In this document: positions 49,061-50,824 of the stretch, piece after piece
Layout of the letters: each line of letters opens with the position of its first letter
Position numbering within the stretch: position 1 is the stretch's first letter
DNA from: Candidatus Bathyarchaeota archaeon
GTDB taxonomy: Archaea > Thermoproteota > Bathyarchaeia > TCS64
Length of the DNA: 64,000 nt
Direction of reading: 5' to 3'
Assembly: GCA_963769425.1 (NCBI GenBank)
Contig: CAVYLP010000005.1
Coordinates: forward strand, 31,436-95,435
Position numbers and translations under genes: made by a program
Notes under the pieces: model-generated
Database searches by the model: none
Told to the model about the DNA's origin: nothing
Seen by the model: only the letters and a program-made list of their open reading frames with translations

Positions 49061-49167
49061 GAGATTGTATTAGCTTAGGTGATTATAAGAGAGTTGGATT
49101 GCGGAGTGCTCTACTCAACCTCCGTGAAGACGATTTTCCTCAAACGGACACCCTCCCCGTATACCCT

Positions 49168-49473
49168 GCAGCGGCGTTCCGACTCCATGTGGCAAGGGCT
49201 CCAACTCCCGCCGCTGCGTTCCGACTCCATGCCGCAGGGTTTCCCAATTCCTAGCAGCGGCGTCCCGACTCCTAGCAGCAGGAGTTCCAACACCCGTAGC
49301 GGCGAGTCTCTTCCTAGCAGCGGGAGTCATGAAACACGATTTTACTCCTACCAGCGGCGTTCCGACTCCATGCAGCGGCGTTCCGACTCCATGTAGCAGG
49401 GTTCCGACTCCTAGTAGGATGGTATAACGTTTTTTCACTGTCCATATTCCTAGCAGCGGCGTTATGAACTCAC
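49168..49473. repeat. Degenerate 21-bp tandem repeat array (consensus GCAGCGGCGTTCCGACTCC[AT/TA])
   Basis: About 12 units; near-exact copies at 49168, 49210, 49254, 49351 and 49372, alternating with more diverged copies. Confidence 0.85.
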
Positions 49474-49595
49474 AGATAGATCTCCTCATCACGCTACCCA
49501 GTCCCTACAATAGGGGATGTACGCCTTGCTTGAGTACTGCAAGGTTCTACAGGCACTGGTTATTCAGGATCCTGATCCTAGCAACGTTTATGTGT

Positions 49596-49676
49596 CCGAT
49601 GTATTTTCTTCCCTCATCGGCGGGTGAGTGGGGCCTCCCACCCGATTCCGCCTGATAAATCCCGGTGAAGGGAGGC
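49596..49676 (+). ncRNA. Candidate riboswitch (preQ1-II-like pseudoknot) in the queT leader
   Basis: P1 CCGATG/CATCGG, P2 CGGGTG/CACCCG, loop GCCTCC complementary to the SD GGAGGC, P4-like hairpin with an ATAA loop; directly before the queT ATG. Confidence 0.5.
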
Positions 49677-50192
49677 ATGAAGGTCAAAGAGATCAGTTTA
49701 GCCGCCGTGCTGGCGGCGTTGTACGCCACGCTTGTCGTGGTATTCGCACCCATTAGCTACGGCCCGATACAGTTGAGGGTCGCGGATTGCCTTATCCCAC
49801 TCTCGGCCCTTCTGGGCTGGCCGGCCGCTGTGGGGGTGTCCCTCGGCGCGCTAGTGGGCAATTTCTACTACTTTTTGGGCCCCATCGACGTTATCTTTGG
49901 GGCGTTGGCAAACCTGTTGGCGGGTCTATTAATATGGAAACTCAGGGGGAGGCTACTTGTGGGCTGCGTCGGAGCCTCTCTGGTCATAGGGTTGATTGTA
50001 GGCGGTTACCTCTGGACATTCTTCCCGCCCCCGGATGTCCTCGGTCTTTCTCTCCCAGTATGGCTCGCTATGGTCGTAAGCATCTCGTTGAGTAGTCTTA
50101 TCTCAGTCGCGGTTATCGGCTACGGGCTGGTCAAGGGACTTGAGGCCTCCGGGTTGAGGAAGCTCCTCGAGTCTCGTGGCATAAAGGCGTAG
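49677..50192 (+). CDS. queT: QueT family 7-deazaguanine precursor transporter (COG4708 type)
   Basis: AAVLAALY...APISYGPIQLRVAD, LGPIDVIFG; SD GGAGG at 49671. Confidence 0.88.
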   Translation: MKVKEISLAAVLAALYATLVVVFAPISYGPIQLRVADCLIPLSALLGWPAAVGVSLGALVGNFYYFLGPIDVIFGALANLLAGLLIWKLRGRLLVGCVGASLVIGLIVGGYLWTFFPPPDVLGLSLPVWLAMVVSISLSSLISVAVIGYGLVKGLEASGLRKLLESRGIKA

Positions 50193-50218: not shown

Positions 50219-50824
50219 ATGCGTTTTCTTCCGTTGATGAATCTCAAGGTCCTACGGCTGGCCGGGTTATTCGGCATCATCGCGCCCCTCTTCGGGCTGC
50301 TCATCGTCGCGTCGAGCGTATGGCTCTCCCCATGGTTCAGCTGGACAGGCAACGCCCTGAGCGACATCGGTGGCTCAGCGGGGTTCGAAGCCATCGTCTT
50401 CAACTCGGGCCTCGCTATGGTCGGTGCGCTCTTGATGATGTTCAGCACGGGCCTCTTCGAGATGACTAAGGGGGATATGCTCGGTCAAGTCGGGGGCACG
50501 ATGTTCCTCATCGCGTCAATCCTATTGATCGCTATAGGTGTAATCAACATCACCATCGAGCCCTGGCACAAATACGTGAGTGTCGGCTTCTTCGTGGCTC
50601 TGCCCCTCTCCGTTATTATAATCGGGGCCTTCCTCCTCAGGAAGAAGATGAAGTTCTACGCCCTTCTGTCCTTCGGGACCGCAGTCCTCGCAGCTGGGAT
50701 GTGGTTCCTACCCTGGTCTGCGGTGGCCATTCCCGAGGCCCTGTCTGTAGCGTACATCGCGGTATGGGAGATACTCCTCGGGTACTGGATGTTCAAGAGG
50801 TACGAGGACAAGCTGGAAGAGTAG
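50219..50824 (+). CDS. DUF998-like membrane protein
   Basis: PWFSWTGNALSDIG, FNSGL, H..VS..FF, AIPE. Confidence 0.8.
   Translation: MRFLPLMNLKVLRLAGLFGIIAPLFGLLIVASSVWLSPWFSWTGNALSDIGGSAGFEAIVFNSGLAMVGALLMMFSTGLFEMTKGDMLGQVGGTMFLIASILLIAIGVINITIEPWHKYVSVGFFVALPLSVIIIGAFLLRKKMKFYALLSFGTAVLAAGMWFLPWSAVAIPEALSVAYIAVWEILLGYWMFKRYEDKLEE

Follow-up and report, generated by a model that had tools for sequence, protein, structure and literature searches.

A conserved pseudoknot leader upstream of archaeal queT genes as a probable translational riboswitch for a 7-deazaguanine

The queT gene of the archaeon studied here is preceded by a conserved RNA element of 58 nt, which forms a 5-bp basal helix, an interrupted stem and an apical loop with an anti-Shine-Dalgarno (anti-SD) sequence that pairs with the SD region. 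Comparative sequence analysis makes it likely, in our judgement, that this element is a new riboswitch built on an H-type pseudoknot, which would switch translation off in response to a 7-deazaguanine, probably preQ0. The window analysed here is a stretch of 64,000 nucleotides from a Candidatus Bathyarchaeota genome, and the features of the locus, numbered within it, are as follows.

49587-49594, + strand: TATA-like box TTTATGTG, part of the predicted queT promoter, at -32 to -25 from the first conserved base
49619, + strand: predicted transcription start, the first base of the conserved RNA, placed at an abrupt onset of conservation
49619-49623, + strand: 5' strand of the basal helix, GGCGG, pairing with 49648-49652
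49624-49629, + strand: 5' strand of the middle stem, GUGAGU, with G49624 and U49625 invariant
49630-49632, + strand: GGG able to pair with CCC 49637-49639 in an apical hairpin with a GCCU loop, a pairing that excludes the pseudoknot
49633-49639, + strand: 5' strand of the pseudoknot, the anti-SD GCCUCCC in the apical loop, pairing with 49670-49676
49640-49647, + strand: 3' strand of the middle stem, ACCCGAUU, with G49644 and U49647 invariant
49648-49652, + strand: 3' strand of the basal helix, CCGCC, pairing with 49619-49623
49653-49660, + strand: A-rich linker in the third loop of the knot, with A49655, A49657 and A49659 invariant and A49658 an A in 99 of 100 leaders
49661-49665, + strand: invariant CCCGG, whose C, C, C and G are found in 100 of 100 leaders and whose last G is found in 98
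49666-49669, + strand: variable spacer of 3-4 nt (from column counts in 100 leaders)
49670-49676, + strand: 3' strand of the pseudoknot, containing the Shine-Dalgarno sequence GGAGG, pairing with 49633-49639
49677-50192, + strand: queT coding sequence, 171 aa plus stop (Pfam PF06177 QueT, E 6.6e-26)
50219-50824, + strand: gene for a DUF998 membrane protein (Pfam PF06197, E 9.6e-18), 26 nt past the queT stop

The borders of the element were drawn from a protein search of 61 related genomes, in 48 of which QueT was found; the search returned 30 queT loci, whose 160 nt of upstream sequence were compared. A near-invariant block of 58 nt, corresponding to 49619-49676 of the window and ending in GGAGG, precedes queT at 22 of the 30 loci, and the motif is near-identical among them although the QueT proteins share only 38-65% identity. 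The flank 5' of 49619 is divergent even among the closest relatives. The block is absent from the other eight of the 30 related loci. Four of these eight (L020, L022, L023 and L025) carry a tRNA-Ser(GCU) gene on the same strand less than about 100 nt upstream of queT, and they belong to one family of the same order as the organism of the window. The 22 leaders were aligned (alignment A1), and a covariance model, R1, was made from them. R1 finds a single strong copy in the genome of the window, at 82.9 bits; a second match there (G000:C6:740811-740867, E 0.056) was set aside as chance, as it lies within a 739-aa open reading frame on the opposite strand and is missing the core.

The leader is widespread in the class and occurs beyond it. 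An even sample of 151 genomes from the class yielded matches to R1 in 90, mostly one in each; another sample of 151, drawn from the whole phylum, yielded them in 27, of which 15 lie outside the class and are distributed over four families. An exact-pattern scan of the GTDB species genomes returned at least 120 stretches; among the matches listed, most titles read Bathyarchaeia or Bathyarchaeota, others naming Methanomethylicus, Methanosuratincola, Methanomethylicota and Nitrososphaerota or Nitrososphaeria metagenome-assembled genomes (MAGs). A Methanosuratincola in culture is reported in PMC12244365. Two contigs binned as bacterial, L176 from a Patescibacteria MAG and L177 from a Krumholzibacteriaceae MAG, also carry the leader and a QueT, with 65% and 46% identity, respectively, to the QueT of the window; these are probably mis-binned archaeal contigs.

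The fold is carried by covariation in a larger alignment, A2, of 100 leaders fitted to R1, for which 60 lower-scoring matches were fetched; L003 and L004 (near-identical to L002), L122 and the loci among L034-L051 that duplicate earlier ones were dropped, and the matches from across the phylum (L123-L132) were looked at but kept outside the pair counts. For the 22 leaders aligned with MAFFT, the RNAalifold consensus is a single long hairpin spanning 49619-49652. Across the 100 leaders, 96.5% of the cells of the basal helix, the middle stem and the pseudoknot are paired, and both sides have changed in 79 cells belonging to nine pairs, a cell count that exceeds the number of independent events because the leaders share kinship. 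Several of the compensatory types may each stem from one event: only five of the sampled families have CG at the fifth basal pair, and a single genus has UA at 49639/49670. None of 500 shuffles matched the pairing and change values, and partners slid out of register reached at most 62% pairing; the pseudoknot had no place in the model behind the alignment.

The first pair of the basal helix is GC in 72 of the 100 leaders, AU in 16, GU in 5, UA in 3 and another combination in 4, and the fifth is GC in 84 and CG in 16, with not a single leader unpaired. The middle stem opens with two wobble pairs from which none of the 100 leaders departs, G49624-U49647 and U49625-G49644; beyond them G49626-C49643 appears as GC (86), GU (4) or AU (1), G49628-C49641 as GC (84) or GU (8), and U49629-A49640 as UA (77), GC (5), CG (3) or AU (1), although these middle-stem counts are biased towards the hairpin to which the model had fitted the alignment. 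In the helix between the apical loop and the SD, three of the seven pairs show compensatory changes. Counted in the 100 leaders, one of the three occurs as GU 24, GC 23, UA 11, AU 7, UG 5, CG 2 and other 18, another as CG 77, UG 9 and UA 5, and the remaining one as CG 75, UA 9, UG 1 and other 4. Inspection by eye revealed divergent knot partners that still match, such as CCUUCC with GGAAGG, CCCUCU with AGAGGG, CACCUCC with GGAGGUG and, in two short variants, CCGAC with GUCGG. The frequent G-U and U-G pairs argue for an element that acts at the level of RNA rather than DNA. What these data support is a simple H-type topology that lacks an embedded hairpin and whose third loop, 17 nt long, consists of the A-rich stretch and the invariant CCCGG.

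This fold departs from a preliminary description of the leader, which had drawn four helices in the P1-P2-P3-P4 layout of class II preQ1 riboswitches and is wrong in three of the four. Its segments were placed correctly (CCGATG 49596-601 with CATCGG 49615-620, CGGGTG 49621-626 with CACCCG 49639-644, GCCTCC 49633-638, GGAGGC 49671-676 and the ATG at 49677), and its P3, the pairing of loop and SD, is genuine, covarying at three of seven pairs. P1 (49596-620), on the other hand, is unconserved, its flank differing in the closest relatives, and lies upstream of the predicted start near 49619. None of the six pairs of P2 (CGGGTG/CACCCG) shows a change on both sides, and its G-C pair 49623/49642 is broken in 16 of the 91 rows lettered at both positions; these same 16 rows are compensated in the helix 49619-623/49648-652, and P2 gives way to the basal helix. 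P4, the hairpin with an ATAA loop at 49649-667, is paired in 75.5% of cells with no compensation; 66 of 97 rows leave its second pair open, and it shares nucleotides with the 3' strand of the basal helix. What stands is the central proposal of a conserved, structured leader that sequesters the SD in a pseudoknot before archaeal queT and is a strong riboswitch candidate.

Within the element, sixteen positions are identical in all 100 leaders, including G49624, U49625, G49644 and U49647, the three linker adenines and CCCG 49661-664. By analogy with riboswitches built on H-type pseudoknots, the A-rich linker may contact the minor groove of the basal helix, and we propose that CCCGG forms part of a ligand pocket or of a tertiary contact. 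Three partners were considered for CCCGG. A local hairpin between its CCC and the GGG of the SD leaves 27 cells unpaired without any compensation, and pairing with GGG 49630-632 leaves 26, again without compensation; both were rejected. Pairing with CCG 49642-644 reaches 99.3% of cells, but both strands are invariant and there is no compensatory change. A K-turn or L7Ae site was likewise dropped after inspection by eye, as A49645 is present in just 9 of 100 leaders.

The predicted start near 49619 is based on the abrupt onset of conservation and on a fitting distance from the TATA-like box. When 99 leaders were aligned on the first base of the motif, A+T content was found to reach 74-88% at -34 to -25, preceded by an A-rich stretch at -39 to -35; a T occupies -1 in 52 of the 99 and a purine +1 in 96, and the information content rises from 0.31 bits at -1 to 1.11 at +1 and 2.0 at +2. 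This pattern would correspond to an archaeal BRE/TATA/Inr arrangement with a start at about 49619. At the other end of the leader, the queT start at ATG 49677 lines up with the starts of homologues in a sequence comparison. GGAGG lies 4-12 nt (mode 7-8) upstream of the start codon in 73 of the 88 leaders with a callable start; in the window and in five other leaders the gap is 1 nt, so that the knot abuts the AUG, and in the window this is too close for a normal SD.

The GGG at 49630-632 offers the loop an alternative partner. The apical hairpin that it forms with CCC 49637-49639 is part of the minimum free energy (MFE) structure of 49619-49652, at -18.0 kcal/mol, and its three pairs occur as GC 79, GU 11 and UA 4; as GC 93; and as GC 62, GU 8, AU 4 and other 13, counts that lean towards the hairpin because the alignment was fitted to it. 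A rough sum of the opened hairpin (-7.2 kcal/mol) and the knot duplex (-13.7 kcal/mol), with the knot loop penalty omitted, gives a stability similar to the -18.0 kcal/mol of the full hairpin. The shortest variants (L120 and L121) lack this competition between hairpin and knot, and hence the switch may be a matter of simple docking. Folding of the single sequence is unremarkable: the fold of 49590-49690 is not significant (z -1.16, with 27 of 200 shuffles folding at least as well), and its MFE structure draws on a flank that is probably untranscribed, and the z values for 49619-49700 (-0.80) and for the hairpin (-1.86) are not significant either. It is consequently the comparison of relatives that decides the fold.

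From these elements a mechanism can be proposed. The transcript would be the 5' leader of a queT(-DUF998) mRNA beginning at about 49619. As long as no ligand is bound, GGG 49630-632 would keep the three C's of the anti-SD in the apical hairpin, leaving the SD free. The ligand pocket would be built from invariant unpaired or wobble positions, namely G49624, U49625, G49644, U49647, the adenines and CCCGG, and a bound ligand would fasten the third loop to the stem and stabilise the helix between loop and SD. That helix would block ribosome binding, and less of the importer would be made, as well as less QueC and QueE in other lineages.

The genes found under the leader point to one pathway. An automatic ORF call places QueT behind 90 of the 100 leaders, those without a call including odd starts, a contig end, a fragment and four membrane proteins of 229-234 aa; likewise, QueT lies within 120 nt at 112 of the 120 loci of the scan, among the matches listed. 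Of the 151 genomes of the class, 40 have QueC, and a comparison of coordinates by hand placed queC on the strand of the leader and at most 2.5 kb downstream of it in 29 of these. Pfam matches bear out the order leader-queT-queC(-queT) in two complete genomes, one of them from another class. In the complete Bathyarchaeia genome G118 (L257:717-2398) the order is leader-queT-queC-queT, with two QueT paralogues followed by an HD-domain gene. In two MAG contigs labelled Nitrososphaerota (L143:734-2226, minus strand; L170:4556-6691), the leader is followed by a QueE-like gene and then by queC; the QueE matches have E values of about 1e-30 and fall under the curated cut-offs. The QueC of L170 is a protein of 483 aa with a glutamine-amidotransferase-like domain fused to its N-terminus. 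This GATase-QueC fusion scores above the cut-off for QueC, and we take it to resemble the GAT-QueC that has been proposed to act in the synthesis of archaeosine in Crenarchaeota.

In four genomes (L058:1566-2261, L070:219-920, L062 and L068), the leader stands before the multi-pass membrane protein of 229-234 aa mentioned above. No Pfam family was matched at E<=1 by the two that were scanned (L058 and L070), and against a QueT profile built here the proteins score marginally (best E 0.0023); a protein atlas places the protein near clusters annotated as 'ECF transporter S component' (score 0.94). The ECF-S-like protein is a possible alternative importer of 7-deazaguanines.

In the window itself, queT is probably co-transcribed with the DUF998 gene. 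A DUF998 homologue occurs at 24 of the 30 related queT loci, mostly adjoining queT and also where the leader is absent, making the DUF998 protein a candidate functional partner of archaeal QueT. The 400-nt gap between a minus-strand GyrI-like gene and the queT promoter holds a degenerate array of a 21-nt unit (49160-49465) with about nine copies, three of which (49352-49411) are near-perfect and in tandem. A similar cluster is present elsewhere in the same genome (G000:C1:184654-184873), and a reversed-pattern control gave about as many matches (12 vs 13).

The genome of the window, which is 91% complete, encodes arcTGT, and no QueC, QueD or QueE was found in it beyond weak partial cross-hits; the combination suggests that the organism depends on salvage. 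The TGT match (G000:C1:288752-289721) consists of two adjoining pieces in different frames (140 and 420 aa), covering positions 3-146 and 143-356 of the profile, and may reflect a frameshift, an assembly error or a real split. As described in PMC4770233, archaeal TGT inserts preQ0 into tRNA.

Two traits common to riboswitches are present here, a conserved and structured 5' leader with covariation, and its recurrence before queT, queT-queC and queE-queC of one pathway. Riboswitches typically betray themselves in this way, by one leader standing before different genes of a small-molecule pathway. The best-surviving alternative, which we nevertheless consider unlikely, is that the leader is genuine without being a metabolite sensor and acts as a site for an RNA-binding protein or as a constitutive or temperature-dependent brake on translation. 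The invariant nucleotides of the hairpin, the CCCGG and the adenines are equally compatible with a protein-binding site, and the want of a compensating partner for CCCGG among its three candidates agrees with this reading; however, the leader occurs in different classes before three kinds of gene of one small-molecule pathway, the 16 invariant positions together with the adenines beside the knot resemble known small aptamers, and no conserved candidate gene for a regulator was found beside the leader in the loci read.

If the leader is a riboswitch, its ligand might be other than preQ0, for example guanine or another purine, CDG (the substrate of QueC), preQ1, queuine or the archaeosine base, a reading to which we give somewhat less credence again. 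It draws on the putative substrate of archaeal QueT, on the queT-queC operons, which are also compatible with import of CDG, and on the control of bacterial QueT genes by preQ1 riboswitches reported in PMC5372724 and PMC11625349. Nevertheless, queE, queC and queT all lie upstream of or at preQ0, which is also the base handled by the archaeal TGT (PMC4770233, as above), and none of about 220 loci showed a gene of purine metabolism under the leader. The preliminary description had suggested preQ0 or another purine, and a ligand of the preQ0 type is the most plausible choice because the leader also stands before queC and queE.

It now appears highly improbable that the leader is a divergent member of class II and folds into the HLout knot (P1-P2-P3-P4) of those preQ1 riboswitches. 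The downstream gene family is identical and in both cases the SD is held in a pseudoknot helix, but P1, P2 and P4 are unsupported, and in a 2024 review (PMC11625349) class II is reported from Bacillota alone. At the gathering score Rfam has no match in the 64-kb window. At E<=10, the region 49400-49800 gives two chance minus-strand matches upstream of the element and 20 diverse leaders give seven chance matches, with none to preQ1-I, preQ1-II (RF01054) or preQ1-III in either set. Together with the failure of P2 and P4, this refutes the proposed membership in preQ1-II. The 'altered ligand pocket' of the preliminary description (AGUGGG in place of a CUUA-like segment) depended on the unsupported layout and falls with it. 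Equally implausible is an operator or promoter acting at the level of DNA through a transcription factor, for which the TATA-like character of the A-rich 49653-49660 and the inverted repeat of the basal helix could be invoked, but against which stand the retention of two invariant wobble pairs, the occurrence of GU (24) and UG (5) at one knot pair, the varying distance of the A-rich stretch from the start codon (spacer -1 to 12) and the separate AT-rich box at -34 to -25 from the motif start, the last two being the grounds on which the A-rich stretch was rejected as a TATA box.

In its broadest form, the riboswitch interpretation holds that the leader represents a fourth, structurally unrelated class of 7-deazaguanine riboswitch, the first riboswitch class of any kind to be known from archaea alone and the first whose natural ligand is preQ0 and not preQ1, with Bathyarchaeia, Methanomethylicia-type archaea and some Nitrososphaerota MAGs as its hosts and with control both of import (queT, the ECF-S-like gene and perhaps DUF998) and of synthesis (queE and queC); on this wider reading our judgement is evenly balanced. 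From an ecological point of view, many sediment archaea, including that of the window, would then depend on preQ0 scavenged from neighbours, and the occurrence of arcTGT and a regulated QueT where QueC, QueD and QueE were not found suggests that 7-deazaguanines are exchanged by cross-feeding in sediments and peat. To our knowledge, few riboswitch classes occur in archaea and those that do are also bacterial; a class that is common yet found in archaea alone would be a novelty. A compact preQ0 aptamer of 58 nt would be a fourth solution to the recognition of this base, a natural switch masking the SD would be usable in archaeal genetics, and the regulation of archaeosine precursor supply in archaea becomes directly testable. 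No description of an archaeal queT-leader riboswitch was found in the searchable literature, with part of the PMC articles and all supplements lying outside the search; the single mention of a riboswitch in PMC9723716 is the title of a reference, and the 'QueT' of PMC4770233 forms part of 'QueTGT'.

The element can be set beside the three preQ1 classes, all of them bacterial, that are recognised in the 2024 review (PMC11625349). There, class I is an H-type knot of about 34 nt whose loop 3 is rich in A, class II an HLout knot that is built from P1-P4 and lies before queT, and class III an RNA of about 100 nt with two knots; the Tte preQ1-I riboswitch is also stated to bind preQ0. With preQ1-I (RF00522) the element shares an H-type pseudoknot, an A-rich third loop following the 3' strand of the first stem, SD nucleotides in the second helix and the control of 7-deazaguanine genes, a likeness of architecture only, as the RF00522 model is unmatched. 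It differs from preQ1-I in its size (58 nt vs about 34 nt), in a first stem that is an interrupted hairpin of 13 pairs with two invariant wobble pairs, in a knot helix of 5-8 bp that covers the whole SD, in the additional invariant CCCGG and in its hosts, Thermoproteota archaea rather than bacterial phyla. The specificity cytosine of preQ1-I (within AC or UC) directly precedes the 3' strand of P1. In the element, C49639 and A49640 adjoin, leaving zero nucleotides between the 5' strand of the knot and the 3' strand of the stem, and invariant cytosines are found at 49661-49663. With preQ1-II (RF01054) it has in common the position before queT (COG4708), the complete SD in a pseudoknot helix and translational control (for the bacterial class, as given in PMC11625349), whereas the HLout knot, the four pairing regions and the embedded P4 of that class are unsupported here. 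With preQ1-III (RF02680) it shares, according to the same review, the association with queT and a hairpin-loop anti-SD that docks on the SD of the 3' tail; preQ1-III, on the other hand, measures about 100 nt and comprises five pairing regions with two knots, compared with 58 nt, one hairpin and one knot here, its pocket is distant from the SD helix, its hosts are Ruminococcaceae and metagenomes, and the RF02680 model is unmatched by the leader. The element differs from the three preQ1 classes in size, helices and conserved core; its regulatory logic is common to all of them, and its bare topology is that of class I.
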